Source: an uncultured Patescibacteria group bacterium (GTDB taxonomy: Bacteria; Patescibacteriota; Patescibacteriia; Veblenbacterales; UBA10138). From it: a DNA stretch of 64,000 nucleotides. The stretch covers positions 11,838 to 75,837 of the forward strand of contig CALFUV010000008.1 in NCBI GenBank assembly GCA_937929825.1, written 5' to 3'. This document shows, one piece after another, positions 23,152 to 56,610 of this stretch. The notes below the pieces were generated by a model. It was not told where the DNA came from. It was given only the letters and a program-made list of their open reading frames with translations, and did no database searches. Both the position numbers and the translations under genes were made by a program. The number at the start of each line of letters is the position of its first letter. The first letter of the stretch is position 1.

Positions 23152-23226
23152 TTCCGGGGTAGCTCAGCGGTAGAGCAGGTGCCTGTTAAGCACTTGGCCG
23201 TGGGTTCGATCCCCACCCCCGGAGCC
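23152..23226 (+). tRNA. tRNA-Asn (anticodon GUU), 75 nt, encoded CCA
   Basis: Acceptor TCCGGGG/CCCCGGA, D-arm GCTCAGCGGTAGAGC, anticodon loop CTGTTAA (GTT), T-loop GGGTTCGATCCCC, GCCA end. Confidence 0.85.
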
Positions 23227-36125: not shown

Positions 36126-36698
36126 ATGTTAACAGCTAAGGCGCGTAATTTAATATTAGGTTTTATAATCCTAGTCAGTTTTGGTTTTTTCTTAAGCCGT
36201 TTAGTTATTAAACCAATGCCGGAAGAAAAAATACCACCAACCATGCGCTTAGAAGTTTTTTATTCAAATACCGAACTTGATCCACCTGATATTTATGATT
36301 GCACACTAGTTTATCCGGTGGAAAGAGTGGTGCCGCGCCAAGCAGATATTATTCGTGTTGCTTTACAGGAATTATTAAAAGGTCCAACTGATGAGGAAAA
36401 AGACCAAGGCTATACATCTCCTTTTTCTGCCGCTACGGCCGATATTTTAGTTTCCGTACGCACTAGTGGCGGCACAGCTTATGTTGATTTTAAAGATTTT
36501 CGAGAGTTGTTACCCGAAGTTTCCGCATCTTGTGGTTCCCAACAATTCAGGCATCAGGTGGAGCAGACTTTAAAGCAATTTCCCGGTGTGGGCCGTGTTA
36601 TTTACGCTATAGAAAAAATCCCCCAAACTTTTTATGATTTTGTGGGCGTAGGTTGTGATTGGCCTGGTACTACTTGTGACGCTTCCCAGTTTCCTTAA
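36126..36698 (+). CDS. GerMN-domain protein (secreted or anchored)
   Basis: N-terminal anchor, IIRVALQELLKGPTDEEKDQGYTSPF and later TAYVDFKDF, the GerMN LL.GPT motif. Confidence 0.5.
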   Translation: MLTAKARNLILGFIILVSFGFFLSRLVIKPMPEEKIPPTMRLEVFYSNTELDPPDIYDCTLVYPVERVVPRQADIIRVALQELLKGPTDEEKDQGYTSPFSAATADILVSVRTSGGTAYVDFKDFRELLPEVSASCGSQQFRHQVEQTLKQFPGVGRVIYAIEKIPQTFYDFVGVGCDWPGTTCDASQFP

Positions 36699-36754
36699 AG
36701 TTTCCTTAAAGTAAAATTTTTAAATCGCCACTTCTTTAAATAAGTGGCGCAAGA

Positions 36755-36898
36755 ATCGCCGCCTCGGTCTTCGTGTCATGCAGTGCTCGCCGCACTCACT
36801 AACGAGCCCTATGCATAAAGGTCGTAACACGAGCTCGTTGGCCATTCGCGCGTCTTCCACTCTGCTACTAACACTACGACAGGGCGGCAGAAGATAGT
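36755..36898. ncRNA. Candidate structured RNA element, copy A (GC-rich, about 144 nt; homologous to 55509..55651); strand unknown
   Basis: About 58% GC in an AT-rich intergenic region. About 70% identical to copy B over the same length; central hairpin ACGAGC/GCTCGT (36802-36807 / 36833-36838) corresponds to a covarying stem in B. Confidence 0.4.
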
Positions 36899-36955
36899 TT
36901 CTACTGGAGCCTTTATTAGACACTAGTGTGTTATGTGTTCCATGTTATGTGATAT

Positions 36956-37738
36956 GTGTATAATAAAGTCATGGATTTTGGTTTGAACGTTTCCACTTTA
37001 ATTTTACCAGCATTTTTTGCCGGTATTCTAACTTTTTTGGCACCCTGTACTCTGCCTCTTATCCCCGGTTATTTGGCTTTTATCAGCGGGGTGTCTTTGC
37101 GCGAGTTACAGCAAAAAAATTCAGTTAGTTTACGTCGAAAGGTTTTTTTTAATGGATTATGGTACGTAGTTGGATTTAGTTTAGTTTTCGTTATTTTGGG
37201 TGGAGTTTTTGGTTCTCTTGGTTTGTTATTGGCGCCGTATCGATTACTCTTGGGCAGGTTAGGAGGTATAATAGTGATTTTTTTTGGTCTTTATTTAATT
37301 GGCGTGATTCGTTTGCCTGTACTTTTAGGTGAACATAAATTGCACTTAGAGCGTTTTTTACGTCCGGGCTATAAAACTTCTTCATTTCTGTTCGGCGCCA
37401 CTTTTGCTTTTGGTTGGACGCCTTGCATTGGGCCAATTTTAGCCTCCATTTTGTTATTAGCTTCTTATTCTGCTACTGCCGCCAAAGGTGCTTTTTTGTT
37501 GTTGGTTTTTGCCGCTGGATTAGCCGTGCCGTTTTTATTGTTGGCTTGGGGCGTAGGTGCGGTGTCGCGTTATCTTGTTAAGCTTGGGCCTTATTTAAAA
37601 TTATTATCTGTTATTGGCGGCATTTTACTGGTTTTAATAGGTTTTCTTTTACTGAGTAATAAGTTTGGTTGGTGGTTGCAATGGGCTTATAAAATTTTTG
37701 GTTTTTTAAATTACCAAGTTTTGTTAAAGTATTTATAA
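36956..37738 (+). CDS. ccdA: Cytochrome c-type biogenesis protein CcdA / DsbD transmembrane domain (paralog 2)
   Basis: FFAGILTFLAPCTLPLIPGY (TM1) and GWTPCIGPIL (TM4), the canonical CcdA motifs. Confidence 0.8.
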   Translation: MYNKVMDFGLNVSTLILPAFFAGILTFLAPCTLPLIPGYLAFISGVSLRELQQKNSVSLRRKVFFNGLWYVVGFSLVFVILGGVFGSLGLLLAPYRLLLGRLGGIIVIFFGLYLIGVIRLPVLLGEHKLHLERFLRPGYKTSSFLFGATFAFGWTPCIGPILASILLLASYSATAAKGAFLLLVFAAGLAVPFLLLAWGVGAVSRYLVKLGPYLKLLSVIGGILLVLIGFLLLSNKFGWWLQWAYKIFGFLNYQVLLKYL

Positions 37739-54163: not shown

Positions 54164-55471
54164 ATGCAGCCATTAAAAATTTTAGCAGATAATTTTGTTA
54201 ACCCTCATAGTAATAACCATAAAACAGCTTGGTATGCTTGGAGTGGCGCGGCTTTAGCTTTGCTAGCATTAGCTAGTGGACTTTATTTTTTTTATTCTTT
54301 AACAGAACAGAAATCAGAGTCAAAAAAAATTTATTATAACCCCAATTTAAGAATTATCTTGGCCTATCCAACTACTTGGCTACCGGTGCCAATACTACAG
54401 GATAATGATGGTTTACCCCGTCGTTTTGAGGGTAAGAGCGGCTGGTTTGAGGTAAGCGCTACTTCAGGCGAGGGGGTTATTTTAACAGAAATAGCTTCCA
54501 GTCTTAATCAAGTTTATGATTTGCCTTTTGGTGCTAATCCACAAATAAATACTGTTAAAATAGCCGGTCAGCCCGGTGCAATGATTGTACCTACTGAAGA
54601 TGGCATAAACCAAGCGGCGGCCGTGATTACCTACCCTGAGCCGGTATTAGTAGGTTTAACAAGTTATCGTTTTTTTATAATAAGATTTGATAAAAATCAT
54701 GCTGTTAATATTTTGAATTCATTGAAATTTATAAGTGATGATGCGATAGAAACAGAAAATTTACCTAATATAATGGTTTATAGTCCGCCACGATTGGCTA
54801 TAATTAATAGTCCTTTTGAGGTAGCTGGCGTTGCCCGCACTACTGATAATGTGCTTAGTCTTAGGATTTTAAATAGTAAAAAACAAGTTATTTGGACAGG
54901 GTCAACAGCAGTTAGTTCTGCAAAAAATGGAAGTTGGGGAGCTTTTAATGCACTGGTTAATTTAAGCGGAGCAGAAATAATCTCCGGTGAAATTATTGAA
55001 CTTCAGGTTTATTACAATCCAGCTTCTGAAACAAGAGAAATGGATAAAGTGGTTATACCCTTGCAGTTAAGGGAAATAAAAGCTATGCAGGTAGTTGAGG
55101 TTTATTTTGGTTCTGTAAAAGCGCCATCTGGTGAAGAGTGTAATTCTGTTTATGCGATTGAGCGTTATGTATCGGAAACAGAATCTTTAGCCCAAGCGGC
55201 AATAATTGAATTACTAAAAGGGCCTAACTTACAAGAAAGGCAAAATGGTTATTTTACCAGCTTGCCACCGGGTGTGGTATTAAATAAGCTGGTAATTGAA
55301 AACGGTTTAGCTAGTATTGATTTTAATGAAAATTTGGAAAGAGGAGTGGGCGGATCATGCCGTGTGCTGTCTATACGTAAGCAAATAGAAAAAACCTTAC
55401 AACAGTTTCCTTCAGTGAAGGATGTGAAAATTTCTATTAATGGTCGAACGGAAGATATTTTGCAACCATAA
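54164..55471 (+). CDS. Anchored protein with an immunoglobulin-like (Gmad2-type) domain and a C-terminal GerMN domain
   Basis: TM anchor; IMVYSPPRLAIINSPFEVAGVARTTDNVLSLRILNSKKQVIWTG (Gmad2-like beta domain); C-terminal AIIELLKGPNLQERQNGYFTSLPPG...ASIDFNENL (GerMN). Confidence 0.5.
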   Translation: MQPLKILADNFVNPHSNNHKTAWYAWSGAALALLALASGLYFFYSLTEQKSESKKIYYNPNLRIILAYPTTWLPVPILQDNDGLPRRFEGKSGWFEVSATSGEGVILTEIASSLNQVYDLPFGANPQINTVKIAGQPGAMIVPTEDGINQAAAVITYPEPVLVGLTSYRFFIIRFDKNHAVNILNSLKFISDDAIETENLPNIMVYSPPRLAIINSPFEVAGVARTTDNVLSLRILNSKKQVIWTGSTAVSSAKNGSWGAFNALVNLSGAEIISGEIIELQVYYNPASETREMDKVVIPLQLREIKAMQVVEVYFGSVKAPSGEECNSVYAIERYVSETESLAQAAIIELLKGPNLQERQNGYFTSLPPGVVLNKLVIENGLASIDFNENLERGVGGSCRVLSIRKQIEKTLQQFPSVKDVKISINGRTEDILQP

Positions 55472-55508
55472 AACTTAATGTTACTTTTCTAGGAAAAGTA
55501 ACACAAAA

Positions 55509-55651
55509 GTCGCCGCACAGGTCTGCGGCTCTACAGTACTTGCCAGTTTCATTGTCTGGCGCTATGCACAGTCGGCCATAAACACGCGCCAGACGGCTGT
55601 TCGCCTGGTTTGCGTTCTGTAACAAGCCTCCGACATGGCGGCAAAATAATG
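55509..55651. ncRNA. Candidate structured RNA element, copy B (GC-rich, about 143 nt; homologous to 36755..36898); strand unknown
   Basis: About 55% GC. 9-bp stem GTCTGGCGC/GCGCCAGAC (55554-55562 / 55586-55594) enclosing a loop that is conserved with copy A; the 5' and 3' termini are also conserved with copy A. Confidence 0.4.
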
Positions 55652-55665
55652 CTAGAAAATATTTT

Positions 55666-56610
55666 TCACTGCCACTTATACATCTCATCAGCCCAGAGAC
55701 GGAGAGCATTCATGGCATGTTCTGATTCGGCCCGGGTAGGGGATGTAAGTACAGCGGCACAAAGACGACGACCAGAAGGTGTAATTATACCAGCTGCCAA
55801 ATGATATTTGGTTTCGTGTAAATAGCCTGTTTTGGCGCCAAAATAACGATTTGGATTATTTCTGACATCATAAACCGTGTGTAATACTGTTTTTCTTACC
55901 CCACCTTTGGTGGTGAAACTAACAGAAGGCGAGGATCCGTAAAATGAAGAAATAAAATTATGATAATACAAAGCACAGGCAGCATGAGCCATATCAGCGG
56001 CAGAGGAGGTATTGGCTAATGATAAGCCGGAAGGTTCATCTATCTTGGTTCGTGTTAAGCCCCAATCGGCTGCGGTAGTGCGCATAGCTTCAATAAATTC
56101 TGTACGCTCTAAACCAACACCTCTGCCTATACTTACAGCGGCATTATTTGCTGAACCTATGAGCATACTGGCAAAAGCTTGTTCAAGAGTTATCTGGTCT
56201 CCATTCTCAAGTTTTAATAGGGAAAAACTATCTTTGGGGCCAACGTAAGGGCGTAATAAATTTTCATTGTCATTAAGGGTAAAATTTAAGGGTGTATACC
56301 AATTTGGTTCATACTTAAGCAGAGTGCCGGCTGTTATCATTTTTATCAAACTGGCAGTAGGCATAACCGTATTTTCTTGATGGAAATAAAGTGGATAGCC
56401 AGTTGAGGCATCAAATAGGGCAGCAGCACGATAAGGTAAGGTTTTTAAATTATATTTTTTTAAATACCACCGGGTAAAATCTTCATAGTTAGCAACAGCT
56501 TGCGGATAAATTATTTCAGCTTGTGTTGCTGGAGTAATAATTACCAAAGTAAAACTTATAGTAGTGACAAATAAGACTATTATTAATATTAAATAATTAT
56601 TTTTACGCAT
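55666..56610 (-). CDS. dacA: D-alanyl-D-alanine carboxypeptidase (serine-type, peptidase S11 / PBP5-like)
   Basis: Signal/anchor, then SxxK (ASLIKM), SxN (GSANNA) and KTG (GAKTGYL) motifs in the correct order. Confidence 0.7.
   Translation of the reverse strand: MRKNNYLILIIVLFVTTISFTLVIITPATQAEIIYPQAVANYEDFTRWYLKKYNLKTLPYRAAALFDASTGYPLYFHQENTVMPTASLIKMITAGTLLKYEPNWYTPLNFTLNDNENLLRPYVGPKDSFSLLKLENGDQITLEQAFASMLIGSANNAAVSIGRGVGLERTEFIEAMRTTAADWGLTRTKIDEPSGLSLANTSSAADMAHAACALYYHNFISSFYGSSPSVSFTTKGGVRKTVLHTVYDVRNNPNRYFGAKTGYLHETKYHLAAGIITPSGRRLCAAVLTSPTRAESEHAMNALRLWADEMYKWQ

Follow-up and report, generated by a model that had tools for sequence, protein, structure and literature searches.

A dispersed, covariation-backed two-hairpin repeat unit in the intergenic DNA of a Patescibacteria clade

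The window analysed here, a continuous stretch of 64 kb, contains only two GerMN genes, both with a Pfam Germane domain, and each of them is followed in the same orientation by one copy (A or B) of a GC-rich, hairpin-forming element. The sequence and coordinates originally given for this element proved correct for both copies, and its contrast in composition is real (GC 0.55-0.58 versus 0.35-0.40 in the adjoining 150-nt windows). The short hairpin that had been set apart from the element, at 36726-36749 and 55480-55502, is an integral part of it and is here called HP1. Each unit comprises, in order, HP1 (20-23 nt, AT-rich), an A-rich spacer of 6-7 nt and a GC-rich rod of five helices and 134 nt; rod length ranges from 132 to 135 nt across the family, and the whole unit spans ~170 nt. 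The parts in the window, together with the reading frames that cross them, are as follows.

36726..36749, + strand: HP1 of copy A, CGCCACTTCTTTAAATAAGTGGCG, an AT-rich hairpin with an 8 bp stem
36750..36755, + strand: A-rich spacer of copy A, CAAGAA (family consensus RCAARAR)
36756..36889, + strand: rod of copy A, 134 nt, GC-rich, five helices, TCGCCGCC...GGGCGGCA
36758-36764 paired with 36882-36888: helix P1 of the copy A rod
36802-36807 paired with 36833-36838: apical stem of the copy A rod, ACGAGC/GCTCGT, with the apical loop CCTATGCATAAAGGTCGTAACACGA
36904..36937: putative decayed remnant of "unit 2", CTGGAGCC...CACTAGTGTGTTATG, matched by eye
36720-36923, - strand: 67-aa open reading frame spanning copy A
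55480..55502, + strand: HP1 of copy B, GTTACTTTTCTAGGAAAAGTAAC, of family-like position and type, flagged by a hairpin scan
55503..55509, + strand: A-rich spacer of copy B, ACAAAAG
55510..55643, + strand: rod of copy B, TCGCCGCACAGGTCT...CGACATGGCGGCA
55437-55709, - strand: 90-aa open reading frame spanning copy B

The rod of copy A starts with TCGCCGC and ends with GGCGGCA, and its HP1 folds at -11.4 kcal/mol (z = -3.5). Copies A and B align with ~75% column identity and indels of 1-2 nt, bearing out the resemblance first noticed between the two regions. An independent HMM, trained on 30 copies from other genomes only and run on the 64-kb window, matched exactly these two sites (A, E 5.8e-27; B, E 2.9e-21), with nothing further at E<=10. 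A covariance model (R1, filters off) assigned 123 bits to A (E 1e-25) and 110 bits to B (E 1e-22), the next match in the window reaching only E 0.67; searching the window with A by pairwise BLAST gave no significant match to B (a 19-nt piece, E 3.6). Downstream of the copy A rod, 36904..36937 is probably the decayed rest of a second structured unit, to judge from a weak by-eye match to the start of a ~175-nt conserved module (GGAGCC..GAGTGAGG.CCTCAGAACTTGCGTGTT..) that lies 3' of the rod in several related loci (L067, L073, L085/L107, L109/L120 and L114), where it is arranged tail-to-tail with the rod.

Copies A and B had been taken for a two-member family; they are members of a dispersed, non-coding and polar repeat unit that belongs to a Patescibacteria clade related to Veblenbacteria and Kerfeldbacteria. 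A strict pattern for the unit's ends matched 30 times in four Patescibacteria-type MAGs; CAYGDX01 (~976 kb) accounted for 20 of these, and the covariance model added five copies there, giving at least 25 in this one ~1 Mb MAG. MAGs of Veblenbacteria and Kerfeldbacteria carry the unit as well, as do metagenome contigs, with ~22 further loci recovered from metagenomes, and the alignment holds 54 copies in all. In a second collection scan, ~39 of the 61 loci were actinobacterial coding sequence fitting the pattern by accident. The covariance model matched none of 25 GC-rich genome loci with chance pattern matches, nor any viral locus; BLAST found no copies in phage and plasmid collections, and IMG/VR held no true copies. 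Assemblies break at the unit, as in L009 and L124, whose contigs stop within the rod. As had been suspected by eye, the element matches no known RNA family: Rfam 15 returned only three tRNAs at the gathering threshold for the whole window, nothing at that level for six related loci, and only chance matches well under the family cut-offs at E<=10 (among them miRNA-precursor hairpins and IMES-4) for both copies and two relatives.

The fold of the unit is strongly conserved. Of the 1963 cells at the rod's 38 pairs, 94.2% are paired, versus 78.9% after shuffling and 31-40% with slid partners, and double changes occur at 30 of the 38 pairs. The covariation score is 0.463 versus 0.180, a value reached by none of 500 shuffles. 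Both helices named in the original prediction, the closing helix GCCGCC/GGCGGC and the central hairpin ACGAGC/GCTCGT, form part of this very strongly covarying rod, and the signature of conserved loops and covarying stems is thereby upheld. Sequence is conserved at the rod base, in one internal loop and in the apical loop (22-24 nt, CUAUGC..CC.ACA(A)ACACG), while the stems vary almost freely in sequence, with compensation; one variant has an additional hairpin in an internal loop together with a compensating change in P1. HP1 lies 5' of every complete rod at a constant distance, including rods found without HP1 in the search, and the RCAARAR spacer is invariably placed between the two. The HP1 stems covary as well (CCAC/GTGG, TTAC/GTAA, CTAC/GTAG, TCAC/GTGA). 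HP1 matches number 48 with a rod versus 11 loose matches without one, and 10 of these 11 are chance-like, the other (L083:6364, at a contig end) resembling the start of a further rod-like copy. The flanks outside HP1 and outside GGCGGCA are not conserved between copies. Of the termini once thought common to A and B, the rod ends are shared by the family, whereas the sequence after GGCGGCA (AGAAGATAG.. and AGAAAATAT..) is not a family feature. Substitutions track base pairing, not codons, and on the best reading selection acts on a single-stranded fold, as RNA or ssDNA. Other identities for HP1 were rejected: an intrinsic terminator (in most copies T-rich sequence precedes it and A-rich sequence follows, the wrong way on both strands), a promoter (by inspection, the hexamers at the -10 position, TAGAGA, TATAAA, TAAATA and TAGGAA, are without the invariant final T) and a pre-existing insertion target (no empty HP1 occurs in the sampled DNA).

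All copies are intergenic. The flanking reading frames run in the same direction as the unit in 18 cases (++) and opposite to it in 16 (--), converge in seven and diverge in two, placing the unit between unidirectional or convergent genes in 41 of 43 contexts. Behind a co-oriented upstream gene, HP1 starts at a median of ~20 nt after the stop codon, and copy B is flanked by two convergent stop codons. Neighbouring genes encode S1, GT2, MiaA, RecO, a PduO-type adenosyltransferase, EF-P, S7, ParA, RuvA and RF1; within ~8 kb around each copy there is neither a recurrent neighbour ORF family nor a transposase or other partner gene. The copies have no promoter-like hexamers in common on either flank. 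The copy A region has no hairpin-plus-U terminator, and in copy B a scan marked two terminator-like sites on the - strand; this genome does have canonical hairpin-plus-U terminators, such as the one behind the tRNA at 23153-23224. No direct repeat of the target-duplication kind flanks the unit in the 33 copies inspected. A phmmer search of 411 kb of related loci found no Y1 transposase, a weak search with E. coli YafM and IS200 TnpA queries.

The association with GerMN genes that had been implied holds for the window, where both copies follow Germane-domain genes, but not for other genomes: at other copies, none of the 10 upstream genes tested is related to GerMN, and the link is confined to this lineage. 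By a rough estimate that assumes ~55 gene 3' ends in the window, the two-of-two placement would be a 1-in-1000 coincidence if random. The suggested check of GerMN genes in relatives turned up orthologues at 56-74% identity without the element. At the GerMN-A locus the element is missing from L001, L002/3 and L004-7 and present in L008 and L009, and the spacer between Dac and GerMN-B in L129 and L125 measures 0 or 65 nt and holds no rod. An orthologue of copy B lies in L118/L104 between the same genes, Dac and a 435-aa GerMN protein, and six compensatory pair changes separate the L118 orthologue from copy B. L073 and L114 carry the rod at their sigma/anti-sigma/DsbD locus without a GerMN gene and in the orientation opposite to that of the window. 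These filled and empty sites come from species ~70-75% identical in flanking proteins, at which distance the exact ends of insertion are unreadable; the loci available include no clean filled-versus-empty pair among near-identical strains. Recent co-duplication of GerMN and element was rejected, since identity between the two GerMN proteins is just 31%. Between copy A and L008 the rod has diverged by 9% and the adjacent spacer by 8.6%, and the flanking genes are uneven (33% at four-fold sites of GerMN, <3% across the initial 115 nt of dsbD); this pair speaks neither for nor against in-place purifying selection.

The copies are also mosaic. L057 and L061 have identical rods joined to different HP1 types, and L047:1802 has a hybrid rod, showing that pieces have been exchanged between copies; the L009 rod looks hybrid too, but its contig ends within the rod, a possible assembly artefact. 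A smaller GC palindrome, CCTGCCTRCCGGYAGGCAGG, is nested in rods, is found elsewhere as well and is polymorphic for presence and absence. By inserting into loops and elsewhere, small GC palindromes show that hairpin DNA can move in these genomes. A second rod family has the same apical-loop motif.

Taken together, the unit is somewhat more probably than otherwise a REP/ERIC/MITE-like structured interspersed repeat that is not tied to the GerMN gene. The structured RNA of the original prediction survives as a conserved fold, for which an interspersed repeat of the REP/ERIC/MITE type is a better fit than a dedicated small-RNA gene. As a repeat, the unit would work like the REP/BIME, ERIC, BOX and Correia class. 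It would lack its own promoter and terminator and would travel passively on the transcripts of its neighbours or be exposed as ssDNA. The folded single strand, with its conserved base and loops, may be the form recognised by a putative trans-acting protein, for which a nuclease, a recombinase/transposase or an RNA-binding protein are candidates, and copies may spread and homogenise through putative transposition and/or gene conversion. Its most likely effect on the host would be that of a very stable intergenic or 3'-untranslated hairpin forming a barrier to processing or decay, and it would not be a regulator of GerMN. Several observations argue against the repeat reading. The unit is asymmetric and has none of the terminal inverted repeats and target duplications of a classical MITE, no transposase or partner gene lies near the copies, and a copy stands behind each GerMN gene of the window. 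Conserved asymmetric loops and the variant with an extra hairpin are expected of a functional RNA, and the six compensatory changes between copy B and L118 suggest selection on the fold in place.

Very strong covariation, sequence-conserved loops, the extra-hairpin variant with its compensating P1 change and the apical-loop motif common to the second rod family would also suit multi-copy, independently expressed small RNAs read from the opposite strand, with the rod as body, the U-rich spacer as tail and the loops binding protein or nucleic acid, an explanation that we consider unlikely. Part of the strand evidence agrees with it. With one invariant pair set aside, the family has 50 A.C versus 32 G.U pairs on the + strand; all five non-Watson-Crick pairs of copy A are A.C on the + strand and hence G.U on the - strand, and all six stem differences between A and L008 toggle between Watson-Crick and the A.C(+)/G.U(-) type. 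The - strand is G-rich (GC skew -0.13 on the + strand), GAUUUUGUGUU-like tracts follow the rod on that strand in many copies, and a sigma-70-like site lies on it upstream of copy A. However, the - strand would carry 32 plus 36 A.C mismatches, including a nearly invariant one at the base of P1, and whereas copy A and L008 favour the - strand, the invariant U.G at the base of P1 favours the opposite one, as does copy B; the G.U and A.C counts are ambiguous and single out neither strand. Moreover, there is no conserved promoter on either side, the flanks beyond GGCGGCA vary, and the sequence after HP1 on the - strand is A-rich, not U-rich, in most copies. The 18:16 orientation relative to neighbours means that half of the copies, if small RNAs, would be transcribed head-on, and ~25 copies of one small RNA in a 1 Mb genome would in our judgement be unusual. 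Set beside a small-RNA gene, the unit has the covarying structure but neither the conserved promoter and terminator nor one clearly transcribed strand.

Placement behind genes suggests instead a host-selected cis-acting RNA at the ends of transcription units (a terminator, an RNase III or RNase Y site, or a 3'-exonuclease barrier) that was copied because it is useful. The near-absence of divergent contexts, the short distance from the stop codon to HP1 and the position of copy B between convergent genes all fit such a role, as do the retention of the fold at orthologous sites and the ability of both strands of the unit to fold into a stable rod. On the other hand, neither the rod on the + strand nor HP1 on either strand is followed by a U-tract, in a genome that has canonical terminators, orthologous gene pairs exist without the unit, and an orientation-free function leaves the sequence-conserved asymmetric loops unexplained; we regard this role as doubtful. 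Equally doubtful, in our estimate, is that the unit is a new multi-copy functional two-hairpin RNA or ssDNA, not kin to REPs, MITEs or attC sites, whose conserved base and loops would dock a dedicated putative protein. Such a protein might, for example, be a recombinase or nuclease guided by structure, or an RNA-binding factor marking where transcription units begin and end.

The same fold could serve as ssDNA on which a structure-specific recombinase or an HUH transposase acts, as in REP/RAYT systems, PATEs and attC, with hairpin DNA cut at the rod base. Its pairing is kept while the stem sequence is free and the boundary helix conserved, neither wobble type is clearly preferred, as expected were DNA selected, target duplications are absent, and small GC palindromes insert into loops and elsewhere. 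This is nevertheless quite improbable: there is no bias of the IS200/IS605 type relative to replication and gene direction, the weak search of 411 kb gave no Y1 transposase, attC core sites, arrays and an integrase are lacking, and the two hairpins of the unit are dissimilar, unlike the LE and RE hairpins of IS200/IS605. A GerMN-specific cis-regulatory or 3'-UTR RNA would account for the co-oriented copies behind the window's only two GerMN genes and behind the GerMN-B orthologue, but is largely refuted and very improbable in view of the unrelated upstream genes elsewhere, the orthologues without the element, the GerMN-free rods of L073 and L114 and the low identity of the two proteins. A degraded or small coding sequence is refuted by frame analysis, and almost certainly wrong: the 67-aa and 90-aa products, from - strand frames that both span the element, are 34% identical over 47 aa, as expected from DNA similarity, but they have no Pfam matches, at most 23 of 33 copies keep any one frame open (13 of 33 for the relevant - frame) and the 133- and 134-nt length variants change frame, in accordance with the earlier view of the element as non-coding.

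Patescibacteria have very small, streamlined genomes, of which the unit, as an interspersed repeat, may occupy up to ~0.5% at a size of 1 Mb. Searches of the available literature by sequence string and by topic found no description of comparable interspersed repeats or structured non-coding elements from Patescibacteria, the sole relevant match being a survey of REPs (PMC3733652). The family represents a clean, covariation-backed structure missing from Rfam, and annotators and RNA-motif hunters would do well to mask or model it, as it is a source of assembly breaks and spurious ORFs. Its conserved loops and base point to a specific putative binding partner, which, if found, would disclose either a novel means of mobilisation or a further level of transcript handling in organisms not yet cultivable. 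Nested GC palindromes and a second rod family show that these reduced genomes harbour a small repertoire of distinct hairpin repeats.

Among known systems, REP, BIME and REPIN sequences are mobilised by RAYT transposases, for which the weak phmmer search of 411 kb of related loci gave no match. According to the REP survey, REPs measure 20-40 bp, bear a GTAG or CGTC tag and sit between unidirectional and convergent ORFs, downstream of genes; its abstract reports tagged REPs in 8 phyla and does not name Patescibacteria (PMC3733652). The unit is likewise multi-copy, intergenic and hairpin-forming and makes mosaics with other short repeats, and its 18 ++, 16 --, 7 convergent and 2 divergent contexts agree with that location, whereas its rod of 132-135 nt is far from the size of 20-40 bp (PMC3733652). 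Many copies have CTAC (GTAG on the other strand) before CGACA, but others have CTCC, TTTC, CTGC or CAAC, and the unit, unlike a REP, is polar and has a second, unrelated hairpin. The LE and RE hairpins of IS200/IS605 elements resemble each other, while the unit differs from a PATE of this type in its two unrelated hairpins, its 18:16 orientation and, in the weak search made, the lack of a TnpA match. With attC sites it shares a conserved fold of variable sequence, a hairpin of up to ~140 nt and placement after genes, but its ends are TCGCCGCC and GGCGGCA, there are no RYYYAAC/GTTRRRY cores, arrays or integrase, and it occurs in either orientation with respect to the gene before it, dispersed beside housekeeping genes.

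Like a MITE, the unit is short, non-coding and multi-copy, breaks assemblies and is patchy at orthologous sites (empty in L125, L129 and L001-L007, filled in the window, L118, L008 and L009). It departs from that class in that the rod ends pair together as P1 and HP1 stands on one side only, and no direct repeat flanks it in 33 copies. In the ~8 kb around each copy, no insertion sequence with the same ends came to light, nor any rod without HP1. ERIC/IRU, pneumococcal BOX and RUP, and neisserial Correia elements are structured intergenic repeats, imperfect long palindromes of 100-160 bp that form RNA stem-loops when co-transcribed; they occur in both orientations, in tens to hundreds of copies, and vary in presence between relatives. 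They are recognised by similarity of arm or TIR sequence, and Correia and RUP elements have TIRs and target duplications. The unit resembles them in size class and in these general properties, and differs in its conserved loops, its free but compensated stems and the absence of TIRs and target duplications. Yeast mitochondrial GC clusters and Rickettsia palindromic elements are GC-rich palindromic repeats in AT-rich reduced genomes, the latter frequently inserted in frame into genes. Both have other sequences and hosts, and the Rickettsia elements contrast with the unit in that it is always intergenic; the unit likewise presents itself as GC-rich hairpins scattered through a small AT-rich genome.

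Both copies in the window belong to a dispersed repeat of about 170 nt, composed of an AT-rich hairpin (HP1), an A-rich spacer and a GC-rich rod of 134 nt with five helices.

Repeat units in the window
36726-36749, + strand: HP1 hairpin of copy A, CGCCACTTCTTTAAATAAGTGGCG
between HP1 and rod: spacer of copy A, CAAGAA
36756-36889, + strand: rod of copy A
55480-55502, + strand: HP1 hairpin of copy B, GTTACTTTTCTAGGAAAAGTAAC
between HP1 and rod: spacer of copy B, ACAAAAG
55510-55643, + strand: rod of copy B

The sequences of the two copies were confirmed as originally described, together with their close resemblance (approximately 75% column identity in the alignment, indels of 1-2 nt), their high GC content (0.55-0.58 versus 0.35-0.40 in the surroundings) and the GerMN assignment, a Pfam Germane domain being present in the upstream gene of each. 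Neither copy matches a known RNA family in Rfam, whether gathering thresholds or a cut-off of E<=10 are applied. Folding predicts one long hairpin for each strand of both copies, with + strand z-scores of -0.8 and -3.5 and - strand z-scores of -2.6 and -3.1.

HP1 (20-23 nt) lies 5' of every complete rod, even those retrieved by patterns without HP1, across a spacer of 6-7 nt with the consensus RCAARAR, and HP1 virtually never occurs on its own; the short hairpin that the original prediction had set apart from the element is therefore an integral part of the unit. HP1 occurs as GTTACTTTTTATAAAGTAAC, CCACTTCTCTAGAGAAGTGG and variants, and its stem covaries (CCAC/GTGG, TTAC/GTAA, CTAC/GTAG, TCAC/GTGA). 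Within the rod, sequence is conserved at the base (UCGCCGCC..GGUCU with CGACA.GGCGGCA), in an internal loop (UGCUCG opposite CUUCCGCU), at CUGG facing CCGGAC, and in the apical loop (CUAUGC-N-CC-ACA(A)ACACG), while the stems between these parts are almost free in sequence. P1, the closing helix at the rod base, has a variant with a compensated C-G to G-C swap. The apex of L009, a locus from a relative, appears plain and tetraloop-like, in a contig that ends within the rod and a copy that looks chimeric. Conservation ends abruptly 3' of GGCGGCA and 5' of HP1; part of this end conservation was imposed by the search patterns, and a second scan with the 3' end left free still gave CGACAGGGCGGCA in most copies.

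The claim of covarying stems was borne out in 54 model-aligned copies, 52 of them distinct. Standard pairs filled 94.2% of paired cells, a percentage somewhat inflated by fitting the alignment to the model, versus 78.9% in column shuffles and 31-40% when partners were slid by 1-3 columns. Changes on both sides were seen in 30 of 38 pairs (column-shuffle mean 21.0), and the covariation score of 0.463 (control 0.180) was reached by none of 500 shuffles. RNAalifold, run on 33 copies aligned by MAFFT alone, recovered these helices and counted 25 compensated pairs, which shows that the signal is independent of model fitting. Across the family, no reading frame stays open, in line with the lack of a consistent ORF originally noted for the window copies.

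The main rival explanation is a genuine multi-copy small-RNA family. The covariance model of the rod, R1, has a marked polarity (about 150 bits in the forward direction versus 27-42 bits in reverse), and the unit thus has a defined sense. In typical RNA families, G.U pairs are far more numerous than A.C pairs. Here, the non-Watson-Crick pairs of the + strand comprise 68 G.U and 50 A.C, 36 of the 68 G.U stemming from one pair position at the base of P1; this near-parity is unlike typical RNA families and fits selection acting on single-stranded DNA or on the two strands alike, or the coexistence of functional and decaying copies. In favor of the - strand, copy A and L008, its counterpart after a 91%-identical GerMN orthologue, show exclusively the A.C type (G.U on the - strand), each of the six stem differences between the two switches with this type, the - strand is G-rich, and on this strand a U-rich tract often follows the rod; copy B and the invariant U.G pair at the base of P1 speak against it. 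No conserved promoter or canonical terminator was found with the unit; canonical promoters and hairpin-plus-U terminators exist in this genome, adjoining tRNAs.

Rather than the two-member family originally proposed, the repeat forms a large family. A scan with the shared ends of the copies, covering a single genome from each species, yielded 54 loci, of which 29 (30 matches) lie in four AT-rich metagenome-assembled genomes (MAGs).

End-pattern matches in the four MAGs
CAYGDX01 (about 976 kb, four contigs): 20
Patescibacteria H52-bin160_1: 6
Ca. Veblenbacteria C24: 3
Ca. Kerfeldbacteria: 1

The remaining 25 lie in GC-rich genomes, where the GC-rich pattern fits by chance, and none is recognized by the covariance model. 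In the same loci, R1 detects additional copies of greater divergence, which raises the CAYGDX01 total to at least 25; in the window it finds A and B and nothing further. Likewise, an HMM from which window and L008 sequences were excluded recovers A and B there and no other site (E 5.8e-27 and 2.9e-21). About 22 true members were added by a metagenome scan whose anchors were HP1 and the 5' strand of P1; the bulk of its matches (L068, L071, L074, L078-L082 and about 30 more loci) are unrelated conserved actinobacterial coding sequence (...NDELRELVERKFRKVAAQVS...). The phage, plasmid and IMG/VR collections gave zero copies. The window organism is close to Veblenbacteria, judging from the 74% identity of its D-Ala-D-Ala carboxypeptidase to a Veblenbacteria protein. 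CAYGDX01 (contigs CAYGDX010000001-4; L013, L019, L023 and other loci) is labeled 'uncultured Gammaproteobacteria'; it is AT-rich and about 1 Mb, it shows 67-69% coding-DNA identity to Ca. Veblenbacteria loci, and it has the repeat in common with Patescibacteria MAGs, so that on sequence grounds the label is probably wrong.

The second rival is a host-selected element of transcript ends. With ORFs of 110 aa or more standing in for genes and about 8 kb covered around each copy, 43 copies could be scored: both flanking genes lie on the unit's strand in 18 and on the opposite strand in 16, seven pairs are convergent and two divergent, and no copy falls within a long ORF. The ten upstream genes tested by Pfam encode S1, a GT2 glycosyltransferase, MiaA, RecO, cobalamin adenosyltransferase, EF-P, S7, ParA, RuvA and RF1, and all-against-all comparison of adjacent ORFs revealed no recurrent neighbor family; the link to GerMN is thus not a property of the family. 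Among orthologous GerMN loci reached via protein homologues, the association held in part, with a copy after the 91%-identical gene (L008), a partial one after a 73%-identical gene (L009), and none at 71%, 63% and 56%. Nevertheless, the only two Germane genes of the window (36126-36698 and 54164-55471) are each followed by a copy in the same orientation, an unexplained coincidence or lineage-specific preference; the two proteins are just 31% identical, so the pairs do not stem from recent duplication. At one locus (L107:9463-9729), an 88-aa ORF that by eye resembles an excisionase/MerR-type helix-turn-helix protein abuts the HP1 side of the repeat.

Comparison of related loci reveals gain, loss and exchange. 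An orthologue of copy B lies between the same flanking genes in L118/L104 and differs from B by six compensated pairs, whereas other relatives, with carboxypeptidases 74% identical to that of the window, have 0 or 65 nt between both stop codons and lack a rod throughout the locus. At the sigma/anti-sigma/DsbD locus, L073 and L114 carry the rod without a GerMN gene and in the orientation opposite to the window. In CAYGDX01, L057 and L061 have identical rods with different HP1 types, at least one rod (L047:1802) is a hybrid whose two halves fail to pair with each other, and helices reappear in varying combinations, as expected if contiguous central segments were exchanged by gene conversion. Nearly identical rods occur in the two best-sampled MAGs (e.g., L030, L039) with no other long alignment in the flanks among the loci sampled; the loci being non-orthologous, this shows only the sharing of rod variants between genomes. 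Between A and L008, rod divergence is 9%, equal to that of the adjacent spacer, the flanking genes being too heterogeneous for a neutral yardstick.

Near copy A, AGTTTCCTTAA at the GerMN stop codon (36699-36720) is directly duplicated in the window (GTTTCCTTAAAGTTTCCTTAAAG) and single in L008. Downstream, TGTGTATAAT (36945-36975, + strand) is an extended -10-like sequence just 5' of a dsbD/ccdA-like gene, which suggests a putative promoter of its own between the repeat and the ATG; similarity to L008 is 91-97% over this segment and the dsbD start (first 115 nt), versus 67% at GerMN four-fold sites.

Several short repeat families co-occur around the unit, in mosaics similar to BIMEs and neisserial NIMEs. 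A GC palindrome of 18-20 nt, CCTGCCTRCCGGYAGGCAGG, absent from the window, occupies three rod sites (3' internal loop, apical loop and P1 junction; L077:5388, L106:14481, L115:632, L065:270, L067:881, L033:5105 and 5220, L038:500, L056:2999) and also lies outside rods (L018:866 and 4443, L025:96, L045:1097, L063:1455, L085:3594, L106:2082). Its presence is polymorphic, since L104/L118 (without) and L077/L106/L115 (with) are the same locus, and it looks like a tiny mobile hairpin. A second conserved structured module of about 175 nt follows the rod directly, tail to tail (L073:5366-5560, L114, L085/L107, L109/L120, L067); its opposite strand contains the hairpin GAACUUGC[UAUGCGGAGCGACCUGAAACAC]GCAAGUUC, with the rod apical-loop motif as loop (fold z = -4.1), as well as a GC-rich hairpin, and it has no match in Rfam. 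Possibly only a decayed remnant of it follows copy A (36904-36937). Degenerate (C/A)GGATTT arrays follow many copies in CAYGDX01 and JBBTZY01 (L033, L038, L039, L043, L044, L045, L047, L052, L061, L062, L063), and GTCATTCCCGCG.AGGCGGGAATC or GTCATTGCGAGG...GGCAATC hairpins precede copies there (left flanks of L017, L033, L055, L056, L063).

Above both rivals, we class the unit with the interspersed structured repeats (REP/BIME, ERIC, BOX, Correia), as a new variant. Like them, it is multi-copy, strictly intergenic and orientation-free yet avoids divergent promoter regions; it has unrelated neighbors, is patchy at orthologous sites, recombines between copies, and forms mosaics, here with the GTCATTCCCGCG.AGGCGGGAATC hairpins, GGATTT arrays, small GC palindrome and second rod family. 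The distribution of REPs, as published (PMC3733652), is the same. By defining features, namely size, tags, TIRs and target duplications, the unit falls outside these families; a search for a partner transposase with E. coli YafM and IS200 TnpA as queries gave no hit in 411 kb of related loci. It also differs from them in that its loops are conserved and its stems free but compensated, implying that selection acts on a single strand in its folded form, with defined points of contact.
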